A stretch of DNA of 50,660 nt from a virus: IMG/VR virus record IMGVR_UViG_3300026472_000004. One strand, given 5' to 3'. The position numbers and the translations under genes were made by a program. Below the pieces are notes generated by a model that saw nothing but the letters and a program-made list of their open reading frames with translations, was not told the origin of the DNA and did not search any database. Numbering within the stretch: the stretch's first letter is position 1; the number at the start of each line of letters is the position of its first letter. Below are positions 2,739-49,233 of the stretch, piece after piece.

Positions 2739-3805
2739 GCGCTCCAACCCTCCATATCTGACTTTGCTTGGCATGCATTTAGAATTTGAGTTTCGTATTT
2801 AGAGCCACGGAAATACTTAGCGGGCTTATCTAAATCATTAGTAGATTTGGCATGCTCAATATCTTTGAGTGCCATTTGATAATCATTTTCTAAACGCGCA
2901 TCATTTTCAGCTTGAAGCTGTTGTTCATTGGCTTGATGGGCTTGTTTATTTCTCTGAATAATTGATTGAATACCACTGCAGGTTTCGTCAAACTTTTGCT
3001 GCAAAACATCATGCAAGCTATTTAGTCCACGTTTAGCACAATATTTCTCTATGTCGATTCCAGCTTGTTGCATAAGAGCTTCAAGTTCAAAGAATTGATT
3101 ACCATTTATGCAAGCATCAGCAGAGCCCGAAATCAACCATTGCTTTAATGCAACACCATCACTTTCAGTCAACTGACGTGGATCAAGAAATAAGCGAGTA
3201 CGATCTTTTGTGGCAATAGCGAGATTGTCATGCGTCAGATCCAACACTGTAGTAAATTCATACTCAATGCCATCACGCTGTTCAGCTTTCATTCCAACTT
3301 TTTCTACTTTTTTCTTGCCGTTATTTTCTACCTGAATTGTTTCCATTTTAGAGCGCAAAGTGACAATTATATTAATGCTTGATTGGAGCATTGCATCTAT
3401 AAACTTACGGTGACGTGGGGTAACTTGGCTCCAAGCACCCCAACTATTTCCCTTGAATGTAGTGCCAGCTAATTTATCAACTATTTCAAGACACCCACCC
3501 ACACCAGACCATTCATGAGTAATACTGTCGATAATTAAAGTATCGAACCCAGCATTTTCAGCGGCCTTAATAACCTCAATAAATTTTTCTGGTGAATAGG
3601 GTGGTTGAATATTTGCATGTTCAAATAAAACTATATCGTCATATAGCTCAGCACTACTATTCTCTGTATCTGCAACAGCAATACGGCCACCAATTCCTTT
3701 AGCTAAAAGTAGTGCACCAAAAGTTTTACCCGCTCCAGTTGGTCCGGCAATTGCTAAGCGTAATTTTGCATTTTTGCGTTGAGCTTTCTTAAAAAATACA
3801 GTCAT
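2735..3805 (-). CDS. AAA_24/Sak4-like RecA-fold ATPase (recombination/replication accessory)
   Basis: Walker A AGPTGAGKT near the N-terminus and Walker B-like LIIDSI. Typical phage Sak4-type layout with a C-terminal extension. Confidence 0.65.
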   Translation of the reverse strand: MTVFFKKAQRKNAKLRLAIAGPTGAGKTFGALLLAKGIGGRIAVADTENSSAELYDDIVLFEHANIQPPYSPEKFIEVIKAAENAGFDTLIIDSITHEWSGVGGCLEIVDKLAGTTFKGNSWGAWSQVTPRHRKFIDAMLQSSINIIVTLRSKMETIQVENNGKKKVEKVGMKAEQRDGIEYEFTTVLDLTHDNLAIATKDRTRLFLDPRQLTESDGVALKQWLISGSADACINGNQFFELEALMQQAGIDIEKYCAKRGLNSLHDVLQQKFDETCSGIQSIIQRNKQAHQANEQQLQAENDARLENDYQMALKDIEHAKSTNDLDKPAKYFRGSKYETQILNACQAKSDMEGWSA

Positions 3806-3807
3806 GA

Positions 3808-4110
3808 TTAAGCTCCAGTCCATCCCATGCGTTTTTTATACGCACGACGTTCGTAAGAGGGGATATTTGAATTTTGAAGCCCAATAGCCAATGCTTTGCG
3901 CTTCTGAAACTTGCGCTCACGTTCAAAATTAAGGCTAATCCAAGGTTTCTCTAAGTGCTCTGCGAATTCGATAATGTACAAATAGCCTGATTTACTAACT
4001 CGGTAGATTTCACCATTTTTCTGAATGTATTCAGACGAATAAATACGCATGCGGAATTCACCGTTTTCATCGCTGATGAATTCTGACTTTTTTGGAGCTG
4101 ATGTATTCAT
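3808..4110 (-). CDS. Hypothetical early protein
   Basis: 100-aa ORF tightly packed in the operon. Confidence 0.55.
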   Translation of the reverse strand: MNTSAPKKSEFISDENGEFRMRIYSSEYIQKNGEIYRVSKSGYLYIIEFAEHLEKPWISLNFERERKFQKRKALAIGLQNSNIPSYERRAYKKRMGWTGA

Positions 4111-4577
4111 TAGACAGCCTCCACCATACGGTTACGTTCGATGTAGTTAACTATCACTTGATTGATATTTCGGTGATCGTTGTAATCTGTGAAGTCGTTA
4201 TATTCTTTGCCGTTGATGTCTTGGATCTCGTCAATTGCTAAGTTGGTGATATCAACTGCAGTAAATTCCGAACCAGGTACACCGTAGCTATCTTGGTGAG
4301 ATTCAAAATTAAAGCTAACTTTAAGTAAGAAGCTATCAAGTTTAACAACGGCCATGCCAGCTGAATCAGAAGTGACCTTTAAAGCTTGGATGCTATATGA
4401 AGAAGGGGCAGTGTTAGGAACTACTACTGCAGGTTTATATTCAGTAGATTTTTGATCATATGTTAGACCGATAGCACCTACTGTGAATAAACCACTTATT
4501 GCTGCTACTTTGATAAAGCTGAATGACTGCACACGATGTGTAACAATGGGATTGATTGAATTTGGTTTTGTGTTCAT
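4110..4577 (-). CDS. Hypothetical membrane-anchored protein (first gene of early-left operon)
   Basis: N-terminal hydrophobic helix (VAAISGLFTVGAIGL). AGGTGA RBS upstream of the ATG at 4577. Confidence 0.6.
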   Translation of the reverse strand: MNTKPNSINPIVTHRVQSFSFIKVAAISGLFTVGAIGLTYDQKSTEYKPAVVVPNTAPSSYSIQALKVTSDSAGMAVVKLDSFLLKVSFNFESHQDSYGVPGSEFTAVDITNLAIDEIQDINGKEYNDFTDYNDHRNINQVIVNYIERNRMVEAV

Positions 4578-4595
4578 AATTCACCTGTAGTAAGG

Positions 4596-4632
4596 AAAAG
4601 CGCATTAGATTTGACGGTCGATGCGCTTTTTT
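4596..4632 (-). terminator. Hairpin/terminator in the leader between putative PL and the first early-left gene
   Basis: AAAAGCGCAT-N15-ATGCGCTTTT. On the minus strand the stem is followed by UUUUCCUU. Confidence 0.5.
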
Positions 4633-4648
4633 GTTATCTGGTGAAATT

Positions 4649-4677
4649 ATTAAACCAAAGATTTAACTTTGTTGCAA
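4649..4677 (-). promoter_or_regulatory. Putative PL (TTGCAA-N17-TTTAAT on minus strand)
   Basis: Same architecture as the putative PR, with the operator overlapping the spacer and -10. Confidence 0.5.
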
Positions 4678-4701
4678 TAGGTTGTTAAACTATAGATTGA
4701 A
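4650..4701. promoter_or_regulatory. Two copies of the 17-bp operator-like palindrome (TTAAAC-N6-TTTAA)
   Basis: TTAAACCAAAGATTTAA (4650-4666) and TTAAACTATAGATTGAA (4685-4701) match TTAAACCTATGATTTAA at 6984-7000. Confidence 0.55.
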
Positions 4702-4737
4702 TTATTTTAAATTTAAGATTTAACATGCTTTAATAGA

Positions 4738-4766
4738 CAAAAGAAAACCCACGTAGGGTGGGTTAG
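4738..4766 (-). terminator. Rho-independent terminator (minus strand) ending the immunity-region transcript
   Basis: AACCCAC-GTAGG-GTGGGTT stem, followed on the minus strand by TTTTCTTTT. Confidence 0.55.
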
Positions 4767-4778
4767 ATGGGGTTTATT

Positions 4779-4958
4779 ATGAGTGAAAATATCGAAGTGA
4801 TATCAAAAGGCACTAACATTCAAAATATGAGTTGTTCTTATACTTTGCTAGAAGATGTCAAAGTAGATGGTATGAAAATCTACTTTAACCAAGTTTTAAA
4901 AGCTCAAGTGGATTTTGAGAATGGAATAGGGGCAATTGGTGGGGCTATCAACATTTAA
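4779..4958 (+). CDS. Possible small ORF (about 59 aa), uncertain
   Basis: Track ORF 4767-4958. Abuts the convergent 4959-5249 gene with no gap. It lies in what would otherwise be that gene's 3' UTR. Confidence 0.3.
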   Translation: MSENIEVISKGTNIQNMSCSYTLLEDVKVDGMKIYFNQVLKAQVDFENGIGAIGGAINI

Positions 4959-5249
4959 TTAAAAGAAAGTGCTTTTTAGAGGATCAACAATTTTTTGATC
5001 AACATTATAAGAAGCCCAATCATTTAGATCGATTTTAGCAACAAAAATTGTATCGTCTTGATCAACATAAGATTTTAAAAAATCTCTTATTTGTGATGAA
5101 GTAAAAGTTGTTTTTACAATAAATTGAGATAAAGTTGGTTTAACCCAAACTGTGCCTGACAAAGCATCAATACCCTCTTGAAGTCGAGCATAGTTTTTAA
5201 TTTTATGTAAATCATATGTTATTGAGTATGCAGCCATTATTTTCTCCAC
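4959..5249 (-). CDS. Hypothetical 96-aa protein (secondary-structure pattern reminiscent of a Cas2-like ferredoxin fold)
   Basis: The pattern YSITYDL...Y..L...G.VW...SQFIV.T...DD.IFV.KI resembles the Cas2 beta-alpha-beta layout. Similarity judged by eye only. Confidence 0.5.
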   Translation of the reverse strand: MEKIMAAYSITYDLHKIKNYARLQEGIDALSGTVWVKPTLSQFIVKTTFTSSQIRDFLKSYVDQDDTIFVAKIDLNDWASYNVDQKIVDPLKSTFF

Positions 5250-5284
5250 CCGATCAATTCTAAAGGTCTGCGTCGGGTTCGCAG

Positions 5285-5629
5285 TTATTTTGATTTAAGA
5301 CAAATTTCTTTATAAACAGTACTAATGCCTTTATGTATGTTGGTTTTTACAGCATCTGGAGTATTTTGTAAGTTAAAACTACCTAGATATACAATAGATT
5401 TTTTTGAGCAATTAACTTTGATTGTATGGGGTATTTTTAAGCTCAATCTATTGCCTCCAGTTTCATATTTAACAAGTATCGATCCATCAGGCTGTTTTTC
5501 AATATTTTCATCAATCCTAACAACAGTGCCAGTAGCACGATTTTCTTTAGTAGAAATATCTTTCCACGATTCGGCATATGCTTGGGCTATGATTAAAAAC
5601 ACACTAATAAAAAAATATTGAACTCTCAT
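5285..5629 (-). CDS. Exported hypothetical protein
   Basis: N-terminal signal peptide (FFISVFLIIAQAYA/ESW); AT-rich. Confidence 0.6.
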   Translation of the reverse strand: MRVQYFFISVFLIIAQAYAESWKDISTKENRATGTVVRIDENIEKQPDGSILVKYETGGNRLSLKIPHTIKVNCSKKSIVYLGSFNLQNTPDAVKTNIHKGISTVYKEICLKSK

Positions 5630-5835: not shown

Positions 5836-6153
5836 CTATACATTGGAATACTTCTCTAAAAACTCATCCACCCATCCCTGAGCAACTTCAAGATTAGTGA
5901 TGTCAGACAATTTTAGATTGGTTTCTTCAGCTTCGTTAAACCCCTCAATTATTGCTTCAAAGATATTTGCCTCAGCAATTACTTCATTTGCTGTTTCAGC
6001 AGGGTCATAGCTTTGTTTGGCCTTTTTAAGTGATGCTATTTGTTTATCAATTCCTGAGCCAATTTTAGCTAATGCCAATTTAAAATCTTGACGATTAATT
6101 GTTAGAGCAGTTTTGGATTTATTAAGTGTTGCGATCATAATATTCTCATTCAT
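5836..6153 (-). CDS. Hypothetical protein immediately downstream of the repressor (rex-like position)
   Basis: 105-aa ORF 40 nt downstream of the CI-like gene on the same strand. Confidence 0.6.
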   Translation of the reverse strand: MNENIMIATLNKSKTALTINRQDFKLALAKIGSGIDKQIASLKKAKQSYDPAETANEVIAEANIFEAIIEGFNEAEETNLKLSDITNLEVAQGWVDEFLEKYSNV

Positions 6154-6193
6154 TTAATAAATTTTAATTAATCAGTTCGCCAGAACTGACATG

Positions 6194-6913
6194 CTATATC
6201 TCACCATCATAAGTATGAGAAACGTATTTACCAATAATACTAATGTGCTCTAACTGATCCGGCTCAACGATCTCACGTTGATATTGGGGGTTGTCACTAT
6301 CAATAATTAAAGCACCATCAAATCGACGAGAAAGTCTTTTAATTTTTAATTCATTGCCGTAACGAATTGCATACACCTTTCCAGATTGGATTTGATCAAG
6401 CGTATTTACTGACTTGTCAAGCATCACAATACTGCCGCTTGGTATTCTAGGTTCCATACTGTCGCCGTCAGTATCAACGGTTATTAAGTTTTTTGGGGAT
6501 ACTTTTTTCTTATGTACCCAACTCAGTAATTGCGCAGAACCCATATCTCTTTGACTTGGCTCATAGGCAGCTAAATGGCCATTACCTGCTGAAAATTTCA
6601 CTTCGACATGAGGAATAATTACATAAACGCTTGGATCTAAATCATCAGGTGATTCCCATGCTACAACAGGCGTACCTTCATTTTGCAGAGAGTTTCCAGG
6701 GCCATTCCCATTCCCGGTCAATAGCCATCCAGCATCAACATTTAAGAGATCTGCTAGCTTTTCGACAGTCTCCCTACCAATCTTTCCCTTTTTCCAATTG
6801 GAAGCGGCTTGAGCTGATAAGCCGATCTTTAATGCAGCAGCAGACCATTTAATATCTGCTTTATTAAGAGCCAACTGTATACGATCAACTATAGTTTCCA
6901 TGGAGAACAACAT
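6194..6913 (-). CDS. CI-like phage repressor (XRE HTH + S24 LexA-like autopeptidase)
   Basis: N-terminal HTH, a candidate Ala-Gly cleavage site (FSAGNG), GDSMEP serine motif and KIKRL lysine motif. Divergent from the Cro-like gene. Confidence 0.9.
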   Translation of the reverse strand: MLFSMETIVDRIQLALNKADIKWSAAALKIGLSAQAASNWKKGKIGRETVEKLADLLNVDAGWLLTGNGNGPGNSLQNEGTPVVAWESPDDLDPSVYVIIPHVEVKFSAGNGHLAAYEPSQRDMGSAQLLSWVHKKKVSPKNLITVDTDGDSMEPRIPSGSIVMLDKSVNTLDQIQSGKVYAIRYGNELKIKRLSRRFDGALIIDSDNPQYQREIVEPDQLEHISIIGKYVSHTYDGEI

Positions 6914-7837: not shown

Positions 7838-8130
7838 ATAGTCATTTTCAAATTAAACATGAGAATAAGCAGACTCAGGAAATCCAATCATTTTATGAAC
7901 CAACTTTGCTTTTGCTGAACCATATTCATGACATCAAAAAAGGCAATCTAAGAATGCGTGGTTACAACGAAGAGAATGCAGCTGTAACCAAAGAAGAATT
8001 GGCCCAAAAGATGGCTTATAGATTCAAGATCACAATTTGGTTATCACATCAGGTTATTACGAGCTTGATTAAAGCTGAACAGGTCATTTCATTTGGTGGG
8101 TACGTAAAGCCTAAGGTCGGTGAATTATGA
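7834..8130 (+). CDS. Hypothetical protein
   Basis: 98-aa ORF; start and stop overlap on both sides. Confidence 0.55.
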   Translation: MNSHFQIKHENKQTQEIQSFYEPTLLLLNHIHDIKKGNLRMRGYNEENAAVTKEELAQKMAYRFKITIWLSHQVITSLIKAEQVISFGGYVKPKVGEL

Positions 8131-9101
8131 GCTTAGATGCAACCATTTGGGCATGGAAAATTAGACAAAAACAAAAGAAAGGCGGCAGTATAAAACCTTT
8201 AAAAAAATTGGTTTTACTGTCACTTGCGGATCGTGCAAGTGAGGATCATTGCGCTTATCCAAGTGTGGCCAGATTGGTTGAAGATACCGAAATGGATCGT
8301 AAAACCGTTTTAAAAATCATCGATGAATTGGTTGAAGATGGATTAATTATTGATACTGGAGAGCGGAAAGGACGCACAAAACAGGTAAAAGTTTATCAAT
8401 TGATGGGTGTATGTGGTCGTGAAACAGTACCAATAACGGTACTGTTAAGTGATGAAAATCAGGACTTAAACAATACCAACAATGGTACTATTAAAGGGTC
8501 TAAAGAGTCCCAACAATGGAACAGTACCAATAATGGAACAGTTCCAACAATTCCATTAAACAGTCCCAACAATTCCGTTAAAGGGTCCCAACGTTGGGAC
8601 ACGGAATCTTTCAAAGAATCTATTAATGAATCTAAAAATAAAAATGGGTGGCTTTGTTTTAAAAAACTTCGTTTGGAATTAGAACAGGCTGATCCCAATG
8701 TGACACCAAAAGAAATTATCGAAGCAAGTTGGTTTGAGCGCGAAAAGAAAACTTTCGAACTTTTTAATGCTGGAAATAATCTTTGTGATGACTTGATGAT
8801 TTACCACTTTGCTGACTGGCTTTTAAAAAATCGCCATAAATACGGAAATAAACCTAAATCTGAGAAAATTAATTTAGATCCTGATTTCCTAGTTTTTGTT
8901 TCACCAAGTCAGATGTACATGTTTGCAAACAAACTTGCTCGCCATCCAGAAGTTATCAGCAAGTACAGCACTGCAGGTGAATCATATGAGAATCTTGCTG
9001 GTCGAATAGCTGGAAAGCTTGCTGATCCATCTGAACGCCAGAACTGGAAATCATACCTTGCTGACGTTGGATTTAAACCTAAGGGCAGAGGTGCTGCCTG
9101 A
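8127..9101 (+). CDS. Replication initiator, lambda O-like (N-terminal winged HTH)
   Basis: The motif WAW...KLVLLSLADRAS...CYPS...L...I..L...GLI is typical of phage replication HTH_36-type proteins. There is an iteron cluster inside the gene. Confidence 0.65.
   Translation: MSLDATIWAWKIRQKQKKGGSIKPLKKLVLLSLADRASEDHCAYPSVARLVEDTEMDRKTVLKIIDELVEDGLIIDTGERKGRTKQVKVYQLMGVCGRETVPITVLLSDENQDLNNTNNGTIKGSKESQQWNSTNNGTVPTIPLNSPNNSVKGSQRWDTESFKESINESKNKNGWLCFKKLRLELEQADPNVTPKEIIEASWFEREKKTFELFNAGNNLCDDLMIYHFADWLLKNRHKYGNKPKSEKINLDPDFLVFVSPSQMYMFANKLARHPEVISKYSTAGESYENLAGRIAGKLADPSERQNWKSYLADVGFKPKGRGAA
8470..8600. repeat. Iteron-like repeats (CCAAYAAT x5 plus palindrome TCCCAACGTTGGGA), candidate ori
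   Basis: Copies start at about 8475, 8508, 8526, 8543 and 8564, and the palindrome is at 8586-8599. They encode the low-complexity N/T/G linker of the O-like protein. Confidence 0.5.
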
Positions 9102-9503
9102 ATGTCTAGCATCTCAATCGCTGAATATCAAAAGAAATACGTGGCTAAGGCTAAACGTAAAGCTAAGCGCAGTAATTCATTAAAAAAAGAACGTGTTGTA
9201 AGTGATGGTGAAGCAACATTAATTCAGCATTTGAGAGCTTACGGTATCGAATTTAAACAAGAGTATCAGTTCAATGAGAATCGAAGATGGAGAGCTGATT
9301 TTCATATAACTGGTACCAAGATTTTAATTGAGGTTGAAGGAGGTATTTGGAGCAATGGCAGACATACAAGGGGGAAAGGTTACATAGCAGATATGGAGAA
9401 ATATAACTCAGCTCAGGAACTGGGTTATTTAGTGTTTAGATATAGCACTGAACAGGTGAGAAGCGGCAAGGCGATTGAAGAAATTAGACGGTTGAAAGGG
9501 TGA
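9102..9503 (+). CDS. Vsr/DUF559-like PD-(D/E)xK endonuclease, copy 1
   Basis: RWRADFHI...LIEVEGGIW motif; paralog of 12121-12564. Confidence 0.6.
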   Translation: MSSISIAEYQKKYVAKAKRKAKRSNSLKKERVVSDGEATLIQHLRAYGIEFKQEYQFNENRRWRADFHITGTKILIEVEGGIWSNGRHTRGKGYIADMEKYNSAQELGYLVFRYSTEQVRSGKAIEEIRRLKG

Positions 9504-9507
9504 TTAT

Positions 9508-10023
9508 ATGAATGCAGCAATTACAATTATGCAGGCAACAGACTGGAATAAGTACAGCTTTGAGGAATGGTGTCGCCAGTTAGGGGCTTGGATAAATGGT
9601 GATAATGAAACAATGGTACGTATTGTAAAAACAATGCCAACAAAACGAATTACGCAAAAGCAGCGTGAAAGACTACTTGCAATGTACATGAAAGATGAGA
9701 ATTTTATAGATCGTTTGTGTGTAAAGCGCAAAGGGATTTGCTGTGAATTAAATAGCAATGAAGCGAGAGCAATCCAAAAATTATTAATTGATCTTCAATC
9801 TATAGATGATGAGGTTGTACAGGATTGGATCGGTTCAATTTGGTGGCATTACGTAATGGGTGAGTCATTGCGAGATATAGCTAAAAGCAATGATACTTAT
9901 ATTGCTCAAATTCAGCAGGACATTAAATGCGGTTTAGCCTTCATAAAATCACGATATCCACACTTTTTAATTGAAAAATTCATAAAAGTTGAAAAACAAA
10001 TTAAGGATATTGAATCCACTTGA
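9508..10023 (+). CDS. Q-like late-gene antiterminator (putative)
   Basis: WCRQLGAWI..., NEARAIQKLL... and WWHYVMGESLRDIAK resemble the Phage_antitermQ family. Its position is just upstream of a promoter plus terminator and the late genes. Confidence 0.55.
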   Translation: MNAAITIMQATDWNKYSFEEWCRQLGAWINGDNETMVRIVKTMPTKRITQKQRERLLAMYMKDENFIDRLCVKRKGICCELNSNEARAIQKLLIDLQSIDDEVVQDWIGSIWWHYVMGESLRDIAKSNDTYIAQIQQDIKCGLAFIKSRYPHFLIEKFIKVEKQIKDIEST

Positions 10024-10048
10024 CTGTATATACAGGGTATGGCATATT
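10020..10048 (+). promoter_or_regulatory. Putative late promoter (PR'-like): TTGACT-N17-CATATT
   Basis: The -35 overlaps the Q-like stop codon. A terminator follows about 50 nt downstream. Confidence 0.5.
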
Positions 10049-10086
10049 TGTGATATCTTGGCGAATTTGTATAACACCGCCGTCTA

Positions 10087-10110
10087 AAACCTCGCATTGC
10101 GGGGTTTTTT
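10087..10110 (+). terminator. Rho-independent terminator (tR'-like)
   Basis: CCTCGC-ATT-GCGGGG (one G.U pair) followed by TTTTTT. Confidence 0.65.
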
Positions 10111-10211
10111 AATGTTCAAAGTGTATGGAATTTAAAATGAATTTGATTAAAATAAGAATTAGATTAAAACTTGAAAAGGATTAAAAAATTAAAACTTTTG
10201 ATGAGTTACCG

Positions 10212-11090
10212 TTGGTTCTTCAATTGCAACATCTAGCTCAAAAGGCTGATTCTGATATTGAAGAATTATTAAGACGAAGCATTTTAGTAGCTACTAAATT
10301 AAATTTAGAAGATTTTGAGCAATGGTGTCGTCAAGAATTATTTGGATATAGTGGAAAATATGAGAATTTACCTTCATATAGAAAAAAAAGAGGGACTTTA
10401 TATGTTAGGAATCCCTACCATGGTTTACAACCTCTCTATCTCTCTGATGAGAAAACTAATGAGTTAATAACAAGGGCAGATTTCTCCCAATCTGTAGGTG
10501 AGCTGGCTATCTTATCGGCTGGAGGGGGGTATCTTGAAAAACAATTGCCAAATGCAGCAATTGACTTTCTTTTAGAAGTTCAAGGTAATTATCCATCTCC
10601 ACCAGTACTAAAAGTTGATAAAGCACTTACGAAAAGTGTATTAACCCATGTTAGAAATAAAATATATGATTGGTCCGTGACCCTAGAGAGAGCTGGTGTT
10701 TTGGGTGAGGGAATGCAATTTACTAAAGAGGAAAAAGAGAAAGCAATGTCAAATACAACTTATAATATTGGAAATATGCAGGGTGTTGCTGGTCATGTAC
10801 AAGATAGTTCTGTGACGCAAACAAACCAAATGATTGTTAATCAGATGGATATAACAACCTTACTAACTACATTAAAAAATGTTGGTATTTCTGAAAGAGA
10901 TTTAAATGAATTACAGCAAGCAATTACTGATGATGAAAAGCCTGTTGCTAAAAACAATTTTGGAGAAAGAGTCTCTAAATGGTACGGTAGGATGATAACT
11001 AAGGCAGCAGATGGAACTTGGGAAATTGGAGTTGCTGTAGCAGCTAATTTACTTACGGAATCCTTGAATAGTTTTTATGGTTTAAGTTGA
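10212..11090 (+). CDS. AbiTii-like abortive-infection domain protein (TTG start)
   Basis: The N-terminus (IEELLRRSILVATKLNLEDFEQWCRQELFGY) matches my recollection of the AbiTii N-terminal signature (...W...ELNGY). AT-rich, with its own terminator. Confidence 0.5.
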   Translation: MVLQLQHLAQKADSDIEELLRRSILVATKLNLEDFEQWCRQELFGYSGKYENLPSYRKKRGTLYVRNPYHGLQPLYLSDEKTNELITRADFSQSVGELAILSAGGGYLEKQLPNAAIDFLLEVQGNYPSPPVLKVDKALTKSVLTHVRNKIYDWSVTLERAGVLGEGMQFTKEEKEKAMSNTTYNIGNMQGVAGHVQDSSVTQTNQMIVNQMDITTLLTTLKNVGISERDLNELQQAITDDEKPVAKNNFGERVSKWYGRMITKAADGTWEIGVAVAANLLTESLNSFYGLS

Positions 11091-11146
11091 TTACAGTTCA
11101 ACTTAATAATTAAGAAAAATTAGCCGAACGGATTACGGCACAAAGA

Positions 11147-11190
11147 ACCCCGCTCAATTCTAGATATTGGCGGGGTCTTATTCTTTATTT
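11147..11190 (+). terminator. Rho-independent terminator
   Basis: AACCCCGC-N16-GCGGGGT followed by a T-rich tail. Confidence 0.55.
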
Positions 11191-11270
11191 AAGAGGCAAG
11201 TTTTTTAGCAATATTTTCTAATATATTATGATATTATTTTTTTGATATTTATTTTTTACTTAGAAAAAAG

Positions 11271-12038
11271 ATGAAGTTTGGAATATGTAAATTATGTGAT
11301 GAAGAGAAAGAATTAAAAAATTCTCATGTAATTGGAAGAGCTGTTTTTAGAAAAGCCTTAAAAGGATCTAAATATACTTTAAGATTTGATCCAAATTTCA
11401 AAAAAGTGGTTAAAGATCAAGATCAATGGGCTACATATATGCTTTGTGGTGAGTGTGAGCATAAATTAAATTCTAGATATGAAACATATGCATTGGATGC
11501 ATTAAGGAATAGAATTAAAACAGTCAAACATAAAGAAAAAAATGAGTATTTTGAGATACAAGGTATTGATCAGACAAAATTAAATTTATATTTGCTATCA
11601 ATTTTATGGAGAGGTATTGAGTCTAATCATGAAGTCTTTGAAAAACTCAATATCTTTAACATTACTCCAGTGGTCAAAAAATTATTCAAAGACTGTATTA
11701 ATGATGAGCGTATATATAGATCTGAATGTTTTAACATTAGGATATCCAAATTAGTTAATTCTATTGAAACTCTTAAAATTAAAGAAATTGATTTTATAAC
11801 TGGTTTTTCCTGCAACATAGATGAAAAAGGTCGTATAAGGTTCTTAACAATATTTGAAGGTTATAGTTTTGAATTTTTTTTCCTTACAGATATTTCTCAA
11901 ATCGTTACAGGTTTAGGTGTACTTAAGAAAAATAAGCGTATTCTTAAAATGCCATATATTGATGTTTTTTCAATTCCTGAATTTAGAAAAAGTCTTTTAA
12001 AAATGCTTGAATCACAAAAAAATGAAAAAGCTTCATAA
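11271..12038 (+). CDS. Cys4 (CxxC...CxxC) zinc-ribbon protein of unknown function, possibly HNH-like
   Basis: CKLC-x9-SHVIGR ... CGECEHKLN. Very AT-rich, with an AT-rich promoter-like region upstream. Confidence 0.6.
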   Translation: MKFGICKLCDEEKELKNSHVIGRAVFRKALKGSKYTLRFDPNFKKVVKDQDQWATYMLCGECEHKLNSRYETYALDALRNRIKTVKHKEKNEYFEIQGIDQTKLNLYLLSILWRGIESNHEVFEKLNIFNITPVVKKLFKDCINDERIYRSECFNIRISKLVNSIETLKIKEIDFITGFSCNIDEKGRIRFLTIFEGYSFEFFFLTDISQIVTGLGVLKKNKRILKMPYIDVFSIPEFRKSLLKMLESQKNEKAS

Positions 12039-12120
12039 GCAGAGTGAGATTTGAATATCCATACCTCTTTTAATAATTTAATGCATAAATGCACTTGATC
12101 TATTTAATTGCGGGCTATTA

Positions 12121-12564
12121 ATGGAAATTAACCAATACACCAAGCTAACAAAAAAAAAGCCTAATAAAACAAAACCAAGAACAAGACCACTGCCTAAGGC
12201 GAAACAGAATTATTTAGAAGCTGATGAAACTTTACATCAAGAACTTAGCGATTTATTTATTGGGTATGAACGTAAATTTCAACCAATCCACACTAAAAAT
12301 TGGCGATTCGATTTTCATATCGTGAAGTTAAGACTTCTTATTGAAATTGAGGGAAGCTCATGGTCTGGTGGGCGAAGTGGTAAGTTAGCCAATAAAGCTT
12401 GGAGTGTTGATCGCTATGATCAAACAGAAGAGTTAGGTTATAAAATTGAGCGATTTCACCCAGATCAGATTCTTTCAGGTTATGTAATCAATTTGATTCA
12501 AGGGCATTTTGAGAGATTAGAAAATGGAACAGATCCGACCATTTCCACCGACAGAATTGATTGA
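12121..12564 (+). CDS. Vsr/DUF559-like PD-(D/E)xK endonuclease, copy 2
   Basis: NWRFDFHI...LIEIEGSSWSGG, alignable with 9102-9503. Confidence 0.6.
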   Translation: MEINQYTKLTKKKPNKTKPRTRPLPKAKQNYLEADETLHQELSDLFIGYERKFQPIHTKNWRFDFHIVKLRLLIEIEGSSWSGGRSGKLANKAWSVDRYDQTEELGYKIERFHPDQILSGYVINLIQGHFERLENGTDPTISTDRID

Positions 12565-13165
12565 TCAAGCTGAGGAAGAAGAAGCGATTCGCCTGGCACC
12601 CGGATTAGATTTAAAAGAATGGGTGATCACAAACTTCTTAACGCTTGGCGGTGCACTTCATAATCCCGACCATGACCACATAGCAGAGCTATTACATGAC
12701 GATGAAACATTCTTAGCATTCGCTTGGGCATCATCTGCCGCCGTAGCTAAAAAACGGATGGTGTTAGGCCAGTGTGAAAAAGTAATGTTTAACCAGGGTG
12801 GATGGCGTAAAGCTCGACAAGAACAACAAATGCGCGACTGGTTTGGGTTTGTACCTATATATCTCATTACGGTTGATGCAAGCTTTTGTGAAAGTGCGAA
12901 CGATCGTGAATTTTGTGCTTTGATTGAGCATGAGCTATATCACATCGGTGTTGAGCGTGACGAGGATGGGGAGATCCTCTATAGCGATCGTACAGGCTTA
13001 CCAAAACATTATTTAACTGGCCATGATGTAGAAGAATTTATCGGAGTGGTCAAACGCTGGGGAGCAAGCAAAAACGTCAAGCGAATGGTTGAGGTCGCTA
13101 ATAACCCGCCGTTTGTATCAGATTTAAATATTTCCAAGTGCTGCGGAACATGTCTAATTAATTGA
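12524..13165 (+). CDS. Putative phage metallopeptidase (HExxH)
   Basis: IEHELYHIG motif; located upstream of the terminase genes. Confidence 0.55.
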   Translation: MEQIRPFPPTELIDQAEEEEAIRLAPGLDLKEWVITNFLTLGGALHNPDHDHIAELLHDDETFLAFAWASSAAVAKKRMVLGQCEKVMFNQGGWRKARQEQQMRDWFGFVPIYLITVDASFCESANDREFCALIEHELYHIGVERDEDGEILYSDRTGLPKHYLTGHDVEEFIGVVKRWGASKNVKRMVEVANNPPFVSDLNISKCCGTCLIN

Positions 13166-41412: not shown

Positions 41413-42507
41413 GTGAAAAAAAATGTAGGAATTATATTTGGAGGAAAATCAACAGAACATGAAGTATCCCTTCAATCTGCAAGAAATATTGTTGATGCTA
41501 TTGATAAAGAAAAATTTGATGTGACATTGATAGGCATAGATAAAGATGGGATTTGGCATCTTAATGAGAGTACTAAATTTCTACTAAACTCCAATGATCC
41601 AAGTCTTATAGCCTTACATCCATCTGGAAGAAATGTAGCATTTATTCCAGGGAAAAAAGAACAACAAATTATTGAGTTCCAAAAAAAAGCACTATCACAG
41701 TTAGATGTAATCTTTCCTATTGTCCATGGAACTCTTGGAGAAGATGGCTCATTACAAGGGTTACTGAAAATGGTAAATTTACCATTCGTAGGCTCTCAAG
41801 TATTAAGCTCTGCTATATGTATGGATAAAGATGTCTCAAAGAGATTATTACGAGATGCAGGGTTAAACGTTACACCATATATAAGGCTAACTAAACAAAA
41901 TAGAAAGAATATAAATTTTGATACTGTATGCTCTAAATTAGGTTTACCGCTATTCGTTAAACCAGCTAATCAAGGATCATCAATTGGTGTTAGTAAAGTA
42001 AATACTATAGAAGAGTTTGAAATAGCATTAGATACAGCATTTACCTATGATAATAAAGTGTTAATTGAAACAGGTATTGATGGCAGAGAGATAGAGTGTG
42101 CTGTTATTGGTAATCACAAACCTAAAGCAAGTGTTTGTGGGGAGATTGAACTATCAGATAGTTTCTATTCTTATGATACAAAATATATTAATGAAAAAGG
42201 TGCTAAAGTAACGATACCAGCCAATATCTCAGCTGAATTGAGTGAAAAAATTAAAAATATAGCTATCAATGCATATGAAATTTTAGAATGCACAGGTCTT
42301 GCCAGAGTAGATGTTTTTTTAACAAAAGATGGCACTGTCTATATTAATGAAATAAATACATTACCCGGTTTTACAAATATAAGTATGTTTCCCAAGTTGT
42401 GGGAAGCAAGTGGATTAAGCTATTCTGACTTGATTACCTATTTAATTGAATTAGCTATAGAGTATCACCAAGAGCAGAACTTAGTACTTGAGCCAAAATT
42501 AATATAA
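41413..42507 (+). CDS. ddl: D-alanine--D-alanine ligase, DdlA-type (GTG start)
   Basis: [44 protein letters not shown] and [10 protein letters not shown] motifs; 364 aa, as for DdlA. Confidence 0.9.
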
Positions 42508-42782
42508 TTCAGCTTAAAAAATCTAGATTGCTTTTAATTTCTGATTGAAACCTTGCCCCAAACTCTTAAAACTCGAGTCAGGGCAGGGGAAAGAAATCAC
42601 CCTATGGATCATTGTACTGTCGCTAAATACAATGAGTGTAGCGCTTCGAATGATGCGAAAAATAGGGCTCTTAATTAAGGGCTTTATTCTCAGGAATAAT
42701 ATTGGAATAAAAAACTATTAAAAATGCAAAACTATAAGCAAAACTTAGTAGAAGTAACTATAAAATTTTCGGTGGATGAATT

Positions 42783-43670
42783 TTAGATTACGATATTCTC
42801 AGATCGAGCACTTGAGATGTATTCCAGATTAAAATCTCCATGATTGTATTGATTAAAAGTTACACCATATTTTTTTTGAAAAGATAATACAGATAAAATT
42901 GATGTTGCAATAGTTGCAAGAGGAATATTATTTGCATGAATGTCATGTATTATTGCAGGGGCATTTAATCCTAAAGCCAAAAGAGCATCACTTTTTAAGT
43001 CAATGTTTACCTCAACATCACTTTTTTTAATTATTTTAAAACGTTCAACAACTGTTTTATCTAATTCCAGAATTGCATTTTCAAACCGTTTTAACTCAGT
43101 TTTTCTAATTACATCAATTTCTTCAGTATTTAACTTTTTTAAGAATTGGTCCATTGTAGAATGCAGACCTTCAAGCTCAGAAGATCTTCTTTCTTTAAAT
43201 TCAAGCAAATCGTTTAAAGAAAAATTTCCACTAGCTGATGGAATTGGTAGTGCGTTAGTTATTTTAAGTCTTAAAGTATCTTTTTTTGTTGCATGTCCTG
43301 GAAGATAAATCGGATCACCTGACATGTGGTGAATGATCCAATCACTATCTTGATCATTTAGCTTTTGCTTAGCAATTTCTCCAAATGTCCAATGCACGTG
43401 TTGTGCTACATCTACCTTACCAATAATTGGTAAAATAGGTCGCTCTAAAATGTTTAATGACTTAAGCTCATTTTCAAAAGGTAATCCAAAATGAATTGCT
43501 TGACTGGTTGGGATCGCGATTTTATCCCAATACATAATGTAGTAAAAGATATCTTCGGGAAGATAAGATCTTTCAAGAAATAAACTATTCCCATTGATAG
43601 ACATTATTCCATTTGGGGCAACGATTCCTCTTTGTACTTTTCTTTTCTTAAATTGAATGATGTTTGACAT
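42783..43670 (-). CDS. Orphan 295-aa protein of unknown function
   Basis: Long ORF with its own near-consensus promoter; no catalytic motif recognised. Confidence 0.7.
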   Translation of the reverse strand: MSNIIQFKKRKVQRGIVAPNGIMSINGNSLFLERSYLPEDIFYYIMYWDKIAIPTSQAIHFGLPFENELKSLNILERPILPIIGKVDVAQHVHWTFGEIAKQKLNDQDSDWIIHHMSGDPIYLPGHATKKDTLRLKITNALPIPSASGNFSLNDLLEFKERRSSELEGLHSTMDQFLKKLNTEEIDVIRKTELKRFENAILELDKTVVERFKIIKKSDVEVNIDLKSDALLALGLNAPAIIHDIHANNIPLATIATSILSVLSFQKKYGVTFNQYNHGDFNLEYISSARSENIVI

Positions 43671-43698
43671 TTGATAAGACTTTTAAATTGTTGTAGTC

Positions 43699-43726
43699 AT
43701 TCTATAATTTAATCACCCACAGTCAA
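43699..43726 (-). promoter_or_regulatory. Sigma70-type promoter (TTGACT-N16-TAGAAT) for the 295-aa gene
   Basis: Read on the minus strand, in the 76-nt gap after umuC. Confidence 0.55.
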
Positions 43727-43746
43727 CAACCCATCCCAACTAAAAT

Positions 43747-45042
43747 TCACTTAACTTTTATCATCCCATTCTTCGTAAAATAATTCTTAGACAACATATC
43801 TCGACTCATTGACCACTTACGATCTTTGAAATAACACGGACCTACTGAAATCTTAGATTTACCGAATTTACTTTGAATATCTTCATAAGCCTGCATCAAA
43901 TTTTCATTTAATGTTCTTGTTTCATGATCTGAAAGCAGGTCGGGGATATGATTTGATTTCAGAATTAACTCTGAATAAAACACACCACATTTTTTGTACT
44001 TGATACCTGGTTTATATATCTTCTCAAGTAAAAGATATGCGACTTCAACCAAATTTAAAACACAATCAGTTGGTTCAGCAAACTTATAAGTCTGTGCTTT
44101 GCTATAGTAAGGAACAGACGCATCAAATGGATTCGATTGAACAAAAGCCGTAATCACACCACACAATAACTTTTCTTTTCTCAAACGCCCAACAGCGTCT
44201 TGGACATACTTAGCCATTGCTTCTTTCAAGTCCTGCAGCTCTGTGATTTTCACGCCAAAGGATCGGCTTGCTACAATTTGCTGCTTTGGTTTTGGCTGAT
44301 CGTCAATCGGCATACATGAGATACCTTGTAGTTCTAAAACAGTTCTTTGCATGCAAACTGTAAACATTTTTCCCATAATAGGGGGATTTGCTTTGGATAA
44401 ATCCAAAACGGTTTTAATCCCCATATCATTGAGCTTTTTATTTTGCTTTCTGCCCACGCCCCAAACTTCGCCAACTTCTACTAAAGACCAAAAGTAATCT
44501 CTATGCTTCGGATTCATATTTGCTAAATCACAGACTCCATTAAACCGCTTTCCTTTCTTAGCCATGTAATTAGCAATCTTTGCTTCAGTCTTAGATCTCC
44601 CTATACCAATAGAAACAGGCAATCCAATCCATTCCTGGATGCGCTCTCTCATGCCTTGGCAATACTCGACAAGATCATAATTATGTTTAAAGCTTGTGAG
44701 ATCTAGAAAGCATTCATCAATTGAATATATTTCTTGTTCGTGTGGCGCGACATAGCCAGCGAGAATTGAATGAAACCGACGTGACATTTCAGCGTAAATT
44801 GCATAGTTACTTGAAAGTACTTGCACATGGTTTTTCTGAACTACATCTTTGATCTGAAAAAGTGGCACACCCATTTTAATGCCCATTGCTTTTGCTTCAT
44901 TGCTACGGGCTACTGCACATCCATCATTGTTTGAGAGTACGATGACAGGGACATTGTTCAGCTTGGGGTTAAAGAAACGCTCACACGAGACATAGCAATT
45001 ATTGATATCAATAAGTGCAAATATCTTTTCTTCATGTTTCAT
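43747..45042 (-). CDS. umuC: Y-family DNA polymerase V catalytic subunit UmuC
   Basis: The N-terminus (FALIDINNCYVSCERFFNP...VVLSNNDGC) is typical of UmuC. Overlaps the umuD stop. Confidence 0.9.
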   Translation of the reverse strand: MKHEEKIFALIDINNCYVSCERFFNPKLNNVPVIVLSNNDGCAVARSNEAKAMGIKMGVPLFQIKDVVQKNHVQVLSSNYAIYAEMSRRFHSILAGYVAPHEQEIYSIDECFLDLTSFKHNYDLVEYCQGMRERIQEWIGLPVSIGIGRSKTEAKIANYMAKKGKRFNGVCDLANMNPKHRDYFWSLVEVGEVWGVGRKQNKKLNDMGIKTVLDLSKANPPIMGKMFTVCMQRTVLELQGISCMPIDDQPKPKQQIVASRSFGVKITELQDLKEAMAKYVQDAVGRLRKEKLLCGVITAFVQSNPFDASVPYYSKAQTYKFAEPTDCVLNLVEVAYLLLEKIYKPGIKYKKCGVFYSELILKSNHIPDLLSDHETRTLNENLMQAYEDIQSKFGKSKISVGPCYFKDRKWSMSRDMLSKNYFTKNGMIKVK

Positions 45043-45656
45043 TTAAAGTTCTTAATAACTTTTGTGACAACACCCCAGATTACTAACTCTTGTTCGTTCC
45101 CTGGGAGGATAGGTTTGTATTCAATGTTTTCTGGTTTTAGCCAAACAGCGGGTAAATTTCTGAGATCATTTTCATTATGAAAAATATCAAACAATTCATC
45201 ATGTGACATTCTTTGTGTAATCATCATTCTTTTTACAGTGAAATCATTGTCAATGAATGCGATAACAATATCTTGATGCTGTGAGCGAATGCTTCTATCG
45301 ACAATTAAATAGTCATTTATATCAATTCCAATATCTCTCATCGAAAGAGACTCAACTTGAACAATGAATGTGGCTTCTTTATTTGAAATAAGCAAATCAT
45401 TCATATCTACGGTTTTATCTATGTAATCTTCTGCTGGGGACGGGAAACCTGCAGCAACTTTATTGAGAACAAGCGGAATAGAATATTTAGTAATTGCTTG
45501 AAAAGATGAGATATTGGATATATCAGATAGGCATTTTGATTTAGATGAATATGCTCTGATATCAATAACTTTAGAGTCTTTCAAGTGGGCTAGACTTGCT
45601 TCATTTAGCTTTAACAACTTTGCTTTTGATGAACTGTCATCTAATTTAATATCCAT
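45039..45656 (-). CDS. umuD: UmuD-like S24 peptidase with extended N-terminus (205 aa)
   Basis: AAGFPSPAEDY cleavage-site region (A69-G70), with Ser105 (SLSM) and Lys142 (TVKR) spaced 37 residues apart as in UmuD. Confidence 0.85.
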   Translation of the reverse strand: MDIKLDDSSSKAKLLKLNEASLAHLKDSKVIDIRAYSSKSKCLSDISNISSFQAITKYSIPLVLNKVAAGFPSPAEDYIDKTVDMNDLLISNKEATFIVQVESLSMRDIGIDINDYLIVDRSIRSQHQDIVIAFIDNDFTVKRMMITQRMSHDELFDIFHNENDLRNLPAVWLKPENIEYKPILPGNEQELVIWGVVTKVIKNFK

Positions 45657-45666
45657 AAAAACACCA

Positions 45667-45718
45667 CTTGATTACGTTACGTATTCAAGATTTTAGATTG
45701 TATGGTTTTAAATTTCAA
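45667..45718 (-). promoter_or_regulatory. umuD promoter (TTGAAA-N17-TAAAAT) with 23-bp palindromic operator CTTGATTACGTTACGTATTCAAG
   Basis: Palindrome at 45667-45689 (10 of 11 pairs) directly downstream of the -10 (45690-45695). Confidence 0.6.
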
Positions 45719-45748
45719 ATTTAAAAGCTGTGGATAATCAGTCTTAAT

Positions 45749-46393
45749 TTAAAAAAGGTCACTTTGTTTGGCTACTTCTGATGAGTGGTCACGCGGAAAA
45801 GTGACAAATTCATCACGCATTTCCAAAAAATATTCATGGGCATGCTTATGGTCTGCATTAAACCAGTCATTTCTGTATTCTTCTGGAATGACAATGATTG
45901 AGCGTTTTTCATCTGTAGGTGCATGAAATTGCTTCATAAAAGGGTGGTTGTCAGAATTTATTGTAAGCATTGAAAACGATCTGACTTTTGAATCTTTAAT
46001 TACTGCATCATCATAAATGGCAGCAACTGTAAACGGTTGACCATCTTCTCGCTTGATTGTGTACCAATGAGATTTACCGTCTATATATTTCGGCTCATAG
46101 AATTCTTGAACAGGGACGAGACAAAATTTGCTGTACTTCCATGCGTGTCTAAAACTTGGTTTCTCTGCAACAGTTTCTGTTCGAGCATTATAAGTATAAG
46201 AACTAAACTTAAAATCTTTAGCCCAGCTTGGCAAAAGCCCAAACTTGCCGAAATCCAAATCAAAACCTTTCATGATGATGGGTGCATGATAACCTGGATA
46301 GATGTGTGGCTTAAGATCAAGTTCTAGCTGATCAACTTCGATATCCAGAAGTGATAAGGCTTCTCTTGTTGGAATTTCATAATTTGAGCACAT
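45749..46393 (-). CDS. SOS-response-associated peptidase (SRAP/YedK-like)
   Basis: MCSNY N-terminus with catalytic Cys2, size, and linkage to umuDC. Confidence 0.8.
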   Translation of the reverse strand: MCSNYEIPTREALSLLDIEVDQLELDLKPHIYPGYHAPIIMKGFDLDFGKFGLLPSWAKDFKFSSYTYNARTETVAEKPSFRHAWKYSKFCLVPVQEFYEPKYIDGKSHWYTIKREDGQPFTVAAIYDDAVIKDSKVRSFSMLTINSDNHPFMKQFHAPTDEKRSIIVIPEEYRNDWFNADHKHAHEYFLEMRDEFVTFPRDHSSEVAKQSDLF

Positions 46394-46454
46394 TTTAGAC
46401 TCCAGAATAAGAATGAAAGAATTAATTGAAAATAATATTAATTCTTCATAATTT

Positions 46455-47789: not shown

Positions 47790-47899
47790 ATTAAATCCTA
47801 GGAAAATAAAATTATTAAGTATCGTTAAATAAAAATTTAAGTATTTATTTAAATTAATTCATTAAATTAAATCCAGCAAAAACCCAAAAAATGATAATT

Positions 47900-47908
47900 T
47901 GTTATAAT
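47900..47908 (+). promoter_or_regulatory. Perfect extended -10 (TGTTATAAT)
   Basis: Lies about 220 nt upstream of the nuclease-like gene. Confidence 0.4.
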
Positions 47909-48022
47909 ATAATTATGCTAAGATTTCAATACTTATGTATATATTCTGATTTATATCATTATTTCTATGAGCCACTACAAATGTATGATTTTAATTGGTT
48001 GCTAACTATACTAAATGTTGCA

Positions 48023-48075
48023 GCAAATGGATCTAATGGTAGCGCTAGATCTTTCGGTATAGAAATTCAATTTGC
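48023..48075 (+). other. GC-richer structured element in the AT-rich leader (closing stem plus two hairpins)
   Basis: GCAAAT/ATTTGC closing stem, GATCTA-N10-TAGATC hairpin and TTTC-N6-GAAA hairpin. Confidence 0.3.
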
Positions 48076-48127
48076 ACACATAATTAAATCCATATAATAT
48101 AAATATAATTAAAATAGAGTTGTATAA

Positions 48128-49177: not shown

Positions 49178-49183
49178 GAGCAT

Positions 49184-49209
49184 ATGCCAGTCTTGCTGGC
49201 ATTTTTTTT
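49184..49209 (+). terminator. Rho-independent terminator
   Basis: ATGCCAG-TCTTG-CTGGCAT followed by T8. Confidence 0.8.
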
Positions 49210-49233
49210 CACAGATTGAACCAATCTAATTAT

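Follow-up and report, generated by a model that had tools for sequence, protein, structure and literature searches.

A viral DNA stretch of 50,660 nucleotides (nt) (IMG/VR record IMGVR_UViG_3300026472_000004; called the window below, meaning the whole stretch at its full length) is an Acinetobacter-type prophage whose nearest DNA relatives are temperate phages of A. baumannii. Between its late-transcription control region and its packaging genes lie two adjacent genes, here gene 1 and gene 2, that an earlier reading of the letters alone (the original prediction) had proposed as a candidate anti-phage module made of an AbiTii-like (abortive infection) protein and a Cys4 zinc-ribbon protein. We find them to be two unrelated single-gene cassettes lying side by side in a variable hotspot, not one two-gene system, and we hold this with high confidence. 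The open reading frames (ORFs) themselves match the predicted ones exactly, gene 1 at 10212-11090 and gene 2 at 11271-12038, on the same plus strand with a gap of 180 nt, and each is embedded in a homology block of its own, as listed here (handles beginning with L denote loci, and those beginning with P proteins).

10212..11090, plus strand: gene 1 coding sequence (CDS), 292 amino acids (aa), TTG start; AbiTii domain, predicted disordered segment and predicted four-helix module.
11271..12038, plus strand: gene 2 CDS, 255 aa, ATG start; N-terminal putative Cys4 HNH-like module of about 80 aa (nt 11271-11510) and C-terminal alpha/beta region of about 175 aa.
10163..11092, plus strand: gene 1 cassette, a homology block defined by blastn against L006 (64.5%, 10163-11092) and L005 (66%, 10177-11088), with similarity ending at the edges.
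11120..12183, plus strand: gene 2 cassette, a homology block comprising hairpin and terminator, promoter-like site, CDS and about 60 nt of the following DUF559-like gene.
11123..11192, plus strand: small hairpin (11123-11139) and intrinsic terminator (stem 11143-11179, T-run to about 11192), from alignment A5 of 10 loci.
11205..11232, plus strand: weak promoter-like site before gene 2, TTAGCA-16-TATGAT, from a consensus scan.

The distribution of relatives carries this conclusion. When all fetched loci were surveyed by tblastn, 80 contained gene 2 relatives, representing 39 distinct contexts, and relatives of both genes occurred together in a single one of the 39, a 2.4-kb metagenome contig (L007) that is 99.4% identical to the window and is a copy of the same phage. 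The original prediction had itself named lack of co-occurrence elsewhere among the grounds for giving up the pair, and on those terms the pair is not supported. A gene 2 copy 98% identical to that of the window sits in another prophage (L004) behind a 515-aa protein, a DUF3223 protein, DUF6988/PDC-S52 and others, and across the loci gene 2 had no recurring neighbour outside the phage backbone. Gene 1 relatives, conversely, are present without gene 2 in five other loci, among them the chromosomal island L005 and the A. radioresistens prophage L006, whose relatives are 57-60% identical; in L006 the 57%-identical gene occupies the slot with HicAB before it, different small genes after it and the same right-hand backbone. 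Full-length gene 1 relatives of 28-42% identity are carried by 140 plasmids (Klebsiella, Aeromonas, Pseudomonas, others), and the neighbours of gene 1 relatives differ in every locus examined, so gene 1 appears to act as a stand-alone gene. Among 50,697 deposited phage genomes, gene 2 was found in five and gene 1 in none; a scan of viral contigs with gene 1 alignment A4 likewise gave zero confirmed matches, and the gene 1 C-terminal module searched by tblastn against phages had no match even at E<=1.

Homology at the nucleotide level breaks between the two genes, the gene 1 block ending at 11092 and that of gene 2 starting at 11120. From 11120 on, the window is 94.3% identical to L004 through the metallopeptidase gene downstream, and the satellite-like L008 matches it at 11125-11181 and 11251-12183. 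The structure at about 11143-11192 that the original prediction had described as gene 1's own terminator (11147-11190) is a genuine hairpin and T-run, with a predicted fold of -25.1 kcal/mol (z -3.33; none of 200 shuffles reaching that stability), yet it belongs by descent to gene 2: together with the small hairpin it is kept upstream of gene 2 in at least seven loci that have no gene 1 (L004, L012, L013, L044, L001, L030, L008), and it therefore forms the 5' boundary of the gene 2 cassette.

It is against these results that a single two-component anti-phage system, with an AbiTii sensor and a Cys4 effector, has to be weighed. Adjacency, shared strand, the 180-nt gap and a defence-type slot speak for it, as does the two-component nature of lactococcal AbiT (PMC13064643); AbiTii domains elsewhere are moreover fused to HEPN-type nuclease effectors, so that a nuclease-like partner acting in trans is plausible. 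But the only shared context is the same phage, the conserved terminator between the genes travels with gene 2, a nearly identical gene 2 occurs without gene 1, gene 1 relatives live on plasmids and other islands without gene 2, and the gene 2 family is found as single-gene integron cassettes (see below). Nor does gene 2 supply the missing lactococcal partner, since it has no PADLOC match at E<=1, the AbiTi model included; no other coding-strand ORF of at least 40 aa adjoins gene 1. The distribution largely refutes the pair, which we regard as extremely improbable.

Composition and signals set the two cassettes apart as well. The original prediction had called both genes AT-richer than their surroundings, which is true of gene 2, with a GC content of 0.262 (3rd percentile of same-length windows; whole window 0.364), but not of gene 1, whose GC content of 0.347 lies at the 29th percentile and is low at third codon positions alone (GC3 0.21 vs 0.27-0.38 in the backbone). 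Lambda-type 'morons' are promoter-gene-terminator units inside late operons, reportedly described as such by Juhala and colleagues in 2000. Gene 2 has the marks of one in its deviant GC, conserved terminator, promoter-like site and presence or absence among sister prophages, and differs in that its terminator lies upstream rather than downstream; gene 1 shares only the presence/absence pattern and the low GC3, with no promoter found. The site at 11205..11232 is weak evidence of a gene 2 promoter because promoter-like sites are no more numerous in the region overall than shuffles would lead one to expect.

The slot that holds the cassettes is bordered on both sides by conserved phage genes, in keeping with the cargo position originally proposed, after a late promoter and terminator and before the phage backbone.

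9508..10023, plus strand: Q-like late antiterminator gene (phrog_79, 'anti-termination protein Q-like', E 8.3e-31), forming the conserved left-hand edge of the slot.
10020-10048, plus strand: candidate late promoter TTGACT-17-CATATT with TG, from a consensus scan.
10086-10108, plus strand: stem of an intrinsic terminator followed by a T-run, the whole promoter-terminator region (10020..10116) having a PR'/tR'-like arrangement.
12121-12564, plus strand: DUF559/Vsr-like gene, right border of the slot (Pfam PF04480, weak; phrog_503), a paralog of 9102-9503.
12524-13165, plus strand: phage metallopeptidase gene, right border of the slot (PF18894, E 1.5e-35; phrog_513), with the terminase genes next.

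The Q-like gene has a weak Pfam Phage_antitermQ match under the cutoff (E 0.0016), and its protein has a 68-75% identical counterpart at the same position in sister prophages. By analogy with lambda, the region 10020..10116 would function as PR'/tR'. The window is homologous up to 10114 to two loci without gene 1 (L012, L043), and the right-border genes are in place 3' of gene 2 relatives in about 30 prophage loci. In these Acinetobacter loci no further cargo separates the gene 2 relative from the DUF559-like gene or the metallopeptidase, and 1-5 kb of variable cargo lies between it and Q. Across sister prophages, Septu PtuA/PtuB (E 4e-182 and 1e-78), PDC-S52 and a DUF3223/HamC-like gene are found between Q and the metallopeptidase, as is HicAB beside the AbiTii gene in L006. 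The anti-phage character suggested for the cargo finds backing in this company of Septu, HicAB and PDC-S52, although the idea of a two-gene module does not, for want of independent co-occurrence. Prophage and satellite defence hotspots, said to have been described by Rousset and colleagues in 2022, share with the present slot a fixed position between conserved genes, interchangeable cargo that here includes Septu and HicAB, and, in the case of gene 2, carriage by P4-like elements. In the literature searched, we found no account of a slot at this place in Acinetobacter prophages, between Q/tR' and the DUF559-metallopeptidase-terminase genes. A search for direct or inverted repeats flanking the cargo as insertion marks gave short AT-rich chance matches alone, and an Rfam scan of 9400-12700 gave no match.

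Several observations on the slot may be recorded here. An A. guillouiae prophage (L014) has a Septu system, complete with PtuA and PtuB, at 3507-5457 within the Q-to-metallopeptidase slot; it is encoded on the opposite strand, and a gene 2 relative of 43% identity follows a few kb downstream. The two DUF559/Vsr-like endonuclease-fold paralogs (9102-9503 and 12121-12564; phrog_503, E 1e-50 and 2.5e-53) lie on either side of the Q gene plus the cargo slot; the metallopeptidase gene begins within the second, and sister prophages have one or both paralogs. A 20-nt direct match (18/20) links the Q gene (9559-9578) with gene 1 (10314-10333), both encoding FE[E/Q]WCRQ in frame; it is probably due to chance but could have served recombination as a microhomology.

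The family of gene 2 is large, gammaproteobacterial and practically without annotation. It matches phrog_7075, whose function is unannotated, over nearly its full length (E 5.8e-115, residues 1-251 on profile positions 1-251 of 252), and searches of Pfam, PADLOC, NCBIfam and PDB sequences with the single protein, with 36 members or with 139 members returned nothing above threshold. Run against 1.84 billion representatives, a family profile retrieved 3,800 proteins at E<=1e-3, of which 1,063 reach E<=1e-10; almost all are 240-280 aa long and match end to end, with named members from Acinetobacter, Vibrio, Serratia, Pantoea, Klebsiella, Photobacterium, Pseudoalteromonas, Moritella, Oceanimonas and Pseudomonas; some of the UniRef relatives are automatically named 'HNH endonuclease'. 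The motifs of the N-terminal module are C6-x2-C9, S18-H19 and C59-x2-C62-E63-H64, with N67 also within it; CKLC, SH and CGEC-EH are thus all present as first described, the spacer being CKLC-x8-SH and not x9. Among 139 members, S18, H19 and E63 are invariant and the four cysteines C6, C9, C59 and C62 are at least 97% conserved, and in the C-terminal region S110, W113, R114, S118 and G197 are near-invariant.

We read the gene 2 N-terminus as a zinc-braced HNH-like centre split by an insertion of about 30 residues and joined to a conserved C-terminal region that resembles no known fold. Three lines of evidence argue for the HNH-like part of this reading. HNH_5 (PF14279) is the sole Pfam family to recur in the gene 2 family, matching 14 of the 139 members, always below threshold, with any other family matching two at most; the CxxC...SHxIP portion of the family consensus aligns to HNH_5 profile positions 4-22 (E 0.024); and the AlphaFold2 (AF2) model (mean predicted local distance difference test (pLDDT) 87.7, predicted template modelling score (pTM) 0.86) places H19 at the end of a beta-strand and C59, C62 and E63 at a strand-to-helix junction. 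Compared with HNH/His-Me finger proteins of the HNH_5 type, gene 2 shares the motif order CxxC ... [S/E]H-x-[IV]-P ... CxxC-[E/N], the histidine at the strand end and the entry of the second CxxC into a helix, but differs in the insertion that splits the motif, in a Glu that replaces the usual Asn or His after the second CxxC, and in its conserved C-terminal region of about 170 residues, which has no known counterpart. The window protein itself had no match to the HNH_5 profile, and a structure search of BFVD returned a single uncharacterised Myoviridae protein.

Two further observations concern the family within phages. Frameshift-split gene 2 relatives occur in otherwise similar prophages (L015 at 8001-8765; L056, L057 and L058 at about 6001-6754), from which it follows that the gene is dispensable for the phage and sometimes decays. 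A second branch, 30-33% identical to gene 2, is found in a larger type of Acinetobacter phage, represented by the IMG/VR contigs L060-L073 (50-80 kb) and by phage vB_AbaM_ABMM1 (58337-59074), and in L066 and L072 this copy lies directly 3' of a Q-like gene.

The gene 2 family is mobile on its own and on four kinds of mobile element, namely prophages, P4-like elements, plasmid-like elements and integrons. P4-like elements, which encode AlpA and a DUF3987 primase, carry relatives as their sole cargo; one such copy (L008) keeps the upstream terminator and, after gene 2, a remnant of the first 65 nt or so of the prophage DUF559-like gene, which shows that it was transferred by recombination carrying flanking sequence. 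A plasmid-like element has a relative as neighbour of a HEPN_Swt1 gene, a Serratia integrative island has one at its edge, and others lie at chromosomal sites between metabolic genes (L016, L017). In Vibrio vulnificus (L076), a relative (P0298) is a one-gene integron cassette: its ORF (8001-8762) lies between repeat copies starting at 7856 and 8764, in a chromosomal array with 11 copies of a 76-145-nt attC-like repeat spaced 492-1004 nt apart, the arrangement that defines a cassette. The window contains no attC-like repeats. In V. cholerae, 16 of the 88 integron cassettes tested protect against phages, most of them single genes, and two of the protective ones, Sirona and Nemetona, are distantly HNH-related (bioRxiv 10.1101/2024.07.02.601686). 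Compared by description, the gene 2 family resembles these two in being small, stand-alone, HNH-like, present as a one-gene integron cassette (P0298) and spread over many genera of Pseudomonadota; Sirona and Nemetona are, on the other hand, described as related to NinG and type II restriction domains, and none of the leading Pfam families matched by gene 2 family members is of that kind.

This breadth of vehicles bears on two other accounts of gene 2. Were it a free-standing HNH homing endonuclease, a selfish gene that cuts empty alleles and serves no defence, its HNH-like motif, strong AT-richness and intergenic place between conserved phage genes would be explained, along with its sporadic occurrence among sister prophages, each time at the one junction that precedes the packaging module, and the frameshifted copies that a homing life cycle predicts. 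Yet all 255 aa are conserved as a unit, with a near-invariant C-terminal 170 aa where swappable DNA-binding modules would be expected; relatives occupy sites that offer no homologous target (integron, P4-like and plasmid-like elements, the Serratia island, L016 and L017); the DUF559 fragment on the satellite copy points to illegitimate recombination and not to precise homing; and the flanking gene varies, being DUF559-like in some loci and directly the metallopeptidase in others. The combination of one target, precise empty alleles and a modular C-terminus that would characterise homing endonucleases is not seen in the family, and we think this account unlikely.

The other account has gene 2 serving the phage from the Q-dependent late transcript, as a host-DNA nuclease, an anti-defence factor or a packaging-associated HNH nuclease, of which HK97 gp74 is an example. 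Such a role would suit a gene that in about 30 prophage loci immediately precedes the DUF559-like, metallopeptidase and terminase genes, that belongs to the late transcription unit and that is present in the five deposited phages, all of Acinetobacter. Sister prophages with the same packaging module nevertheless do without it, as in L006 with its 83%-identical metallopeptidase, and others that are otherwise similar have it frameshifted; relatives reside on elements devoid of terminase (integron, plasmid-like, P4-like, chromosomal sites); and its own terminator, promoter-like signals and deviant GC mark it as an acquired moron. The occurrence of relatives in integron cassettes and on elements without terminase or target, and their absence from sister prophages, thus weakens both accounts, and service to the phage seems to us quite unlikely.

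Gene 1 is, by profile score, a member of the AbiTii family, as the original prediction had surmised from its N-terminus. Residues 2-180 (nt 10215-10751) match Pfam AbiTii (PF18864) with E 4.7e-32 and 112.2 bits against a cutoff of 27.6, covering profile positions 3-186 of 189; the PADLOC AbiTii model gives E 1.9e-35, and PF18864 is present in all 29 gene 1 homologs. The TTG start proposed earlier is supported, as no earlier in-frame start is available, a TAA stop at 10182 barring one, and two homologs (P0036, P0037) begin at exactly this position; there is no in-frame ATG before residue 168. The N-terminus 'MKTFDELP' of longer homologs aligns to 10188-10211, where the ancestral ATG is now ATT in the window.

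In the AF2 model gene 1 has three parts: an alpha+beta domain (1-180, pLDDT about 90), a segment of very low confidence (182-209, below 50) and a helical module (214-289, about 80). The AbiTii domain has been described with an alpha+beta fold and a 'highly conserved glutamate' (PMC3710099). Two glutamates, E42 and E159, are invariant among the 28 sequences of alignment A3, and gene 1 retains both, as it does the invariant W38, Y56 and R57; E42 fits the published residue and may be the one meant. The segment 182-209 (nt 10755-10838) is rich in N, Q, G and V and predicted to be disordered, and yet is among the best-conserved stretches of the family, with the A3 consensus I-G-N-M-Q-G-V-A-G-x-V-x-D-S-S-V-T-Q-T-N-Q. 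By composition and placement it recalls, as an analogy, the amyloid signalling motifs that lie beside small helical cell-death domains in the Bab/Agp system (bioRxiv 10.1101/2024.11.07.622273); that it would form an amyloid-type switch of this sort we consider very doubtful.

The C-terminal part of gene 1 (aa 214-289, nt 10851-11078) is predicted to be a four-helix module with a Gly/Ala-rich last helix, and phrog_16090 matches aa 197-292 (E 1.1e-12). Gene 1 does not qualify as an AbiTii-HEPN (c2405/Ymh) protein: residues 212-292 had no Pfam match at E<=10, the only histidine after residue 180 is H195, within the disordered segment, and in the AF2 model the module is small, at some 75 residues. 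A Foldseek search of the PDB with the gene 1 model produced nothing usable and no solved structure resembles it, in agreement with a recent review that lists AbiTii without a PDB match (PMC13064643). The full-length architecture is nevertheless conserved in Acinetobacter, Pseudomonas and Bacillus. Gene 1 thus shares with AbiTii, the second component of AbiT in Lactococcus lactis, the end-to-end profile, alpha+beta fold, invariant glutamate and location on a mobile element in defence-type surroundings, but differs from that system in having no AbiTi partner and from AbiTii itself in an extra C-terminal part of about 110 aa (the low-complexity segment and the four-helix module with phrog_16090) that is neither the lactococcal C-terminus nor a HEPN (c2405/Ymh) domain.

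As a separate observation, a P-loop ATPase of about 440 aa lies directly upstream of a gene 1 relative, on the same strand, in two unrelated loci, the A. baumannii chromosomal island L005 (3486-4841) and the Shewanella plasmid L086 (2614-3915). An AbiTii-plus-ATPase subtype in L005 and L086 is possible; as a partner for gene 1 the ATPase was rejected, the two proteins sharing the Walker A region only and the window having nothing comparable.

AbiTii is known as an N-terminal domain fused to HEPN effectors in many bacteria, and it has been proposed that such N-terminal domains handle phage components while the C-terminal domain executes (PMC3710099). Our explanation of the locus is that a lambdoid Acinetobacter prophage, in its variable accessory slot between Q with the late promoter and terminator and the packaging genes, received two unrelated single-gene cassettes side by side. 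For gene 1 we infer a division into sensor and effector, in which the AbiTii domain (about 180 aa) would sense or bind a phage component, by analogy with AbiTii-HEPN fusions, and the four-helix module would provide the output, a non-enzymatic and possibly membrane- or oligomerisation-based abortive effect. Gene 2, in its moron layout with its own insulating terminator upstream and its own putative promoter, would be expressed in the lysogen. Its centre would be a beta-beta-alpha-metal (HNH-type) nuclease, with H19 as the general base, E63 and N67 as metal ligands and C6, C9, C59 and C62 binding zinc, while the C-terminal region (W113-R114) may confer recognition or regulation; the protein would then be a single-gene, metal-dependent nuclease used by the lysogen against superinfecting phages or other invading DNA.

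A number of results weigh against this explanation. As regards gene 2, the earlier zinc-ribbon or HNH-like assignment survives as a Cys4 HNH-like reading at sub-threshold level only, since the family consensus scores 15 bits against the HNH_5 cutoff of 27.5, which does not make it a member of that family. Foldseek comparison of the gene 2 model with the PDB gave a best E of 0.055 with a template modelling (TM) score below 0.2 and no HNH structure; hhalign of the family with the HNH protein PtuB of Septu was not significant; and PADLOC models found no match in gene 2 and 36 relatives. Its position as last cargo upstream of the DUF559-like gene or metallopeptidase in some 30 prophage loci could reflect a function that benefits the phage. 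For gene 1, a consensus scan found no consensus promoter on its 5' side, and its transcription may depend wholly on late-operon read-through, a poor fit to protection of a lysogen. Lactococcal AbiT, moreover, needs AbiTi as a second protein, which is absent here, and a transmembrane C-terminal helix in gene 1 was rejected, its hydropathy of 0.93 vs the usual 1.6 allowing at most a weak possibility of a 'membrane-active helix'.

A more deflationary view would see in one gene, or in both, a passenger without function or the decaying remnant of a past insertion. Gene 1 has lost its ancestral ATG (ATT at 10188), starts with TTG and has no evident promoter, and some gene 2 relatives are frameshifted. 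Set against this, both ORFs are full length relative to their homologs, P0036 and P0037 share the gene 1 start, the AF2 models are confident, and the family-invariant residues are kept, in gene 1 E42, E159, W38, Y56 and R57 and in gene 2 C6, C9, S18, H19, C59, C62, E63, W113 and R114; we judge it very unlikely. Taken as a whole, two cassettes in a hotspot with functions as outlined appears to us rather probable. That both are anti-phage genes acting in the way described is more tentative and has, at best, about an even chance of being right. Likewise tentative, and somewhat short of even, is the broader suggestion that gene 2 typifies an unnamed and widespread family of single-protein nucleases directed against phages or mobile DNA, with a split, zinc-braced HNH-like centre and no solved relative, and spread by at least four vehicles.

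That prophages have hotspots where defence genes replace one another is well established, and AbiTii too is known, as a poorly understood Abi component. The novelty here is modest and lies in the definition of the hotspot in Acinetobacter prophages, in an AbiTii architecture with a non-HEPN helical C-terminus and, above all, in a large, unannotated and structurally orphan one-gene family on four kinds of mobile element. Adjacency within a prophage hotspot does not make a system: to clone the two genes as a pair would mis-assign any phenotype, and a tempting mis-annotation is hereby corrected. The slot is a place to look for accessory genes in a pathogen of importance that is a target of phage therapy, and the gene 2 family offers a well-delimited one-gene candidate for defence screening, with H19, E63 and the four cysteines as the residues of the putative catalytic site.

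Lastly, a second cargo region (41413-50439) is found at the right end of the prophage, beside the integrase (49234-50439). It holds genes for a D-Ala-D-Ala ligase (41413-42507) and a DUF6236 protein (42783-43670), UmuC/UmuD-like genes (43747-45656), a gene for a SRAP peptidase (45749-46393) and two very AT-rich genes (GC about 0.25), one without a match (48128-49177) and the other with a weak PdaC-like match (46455-47789).

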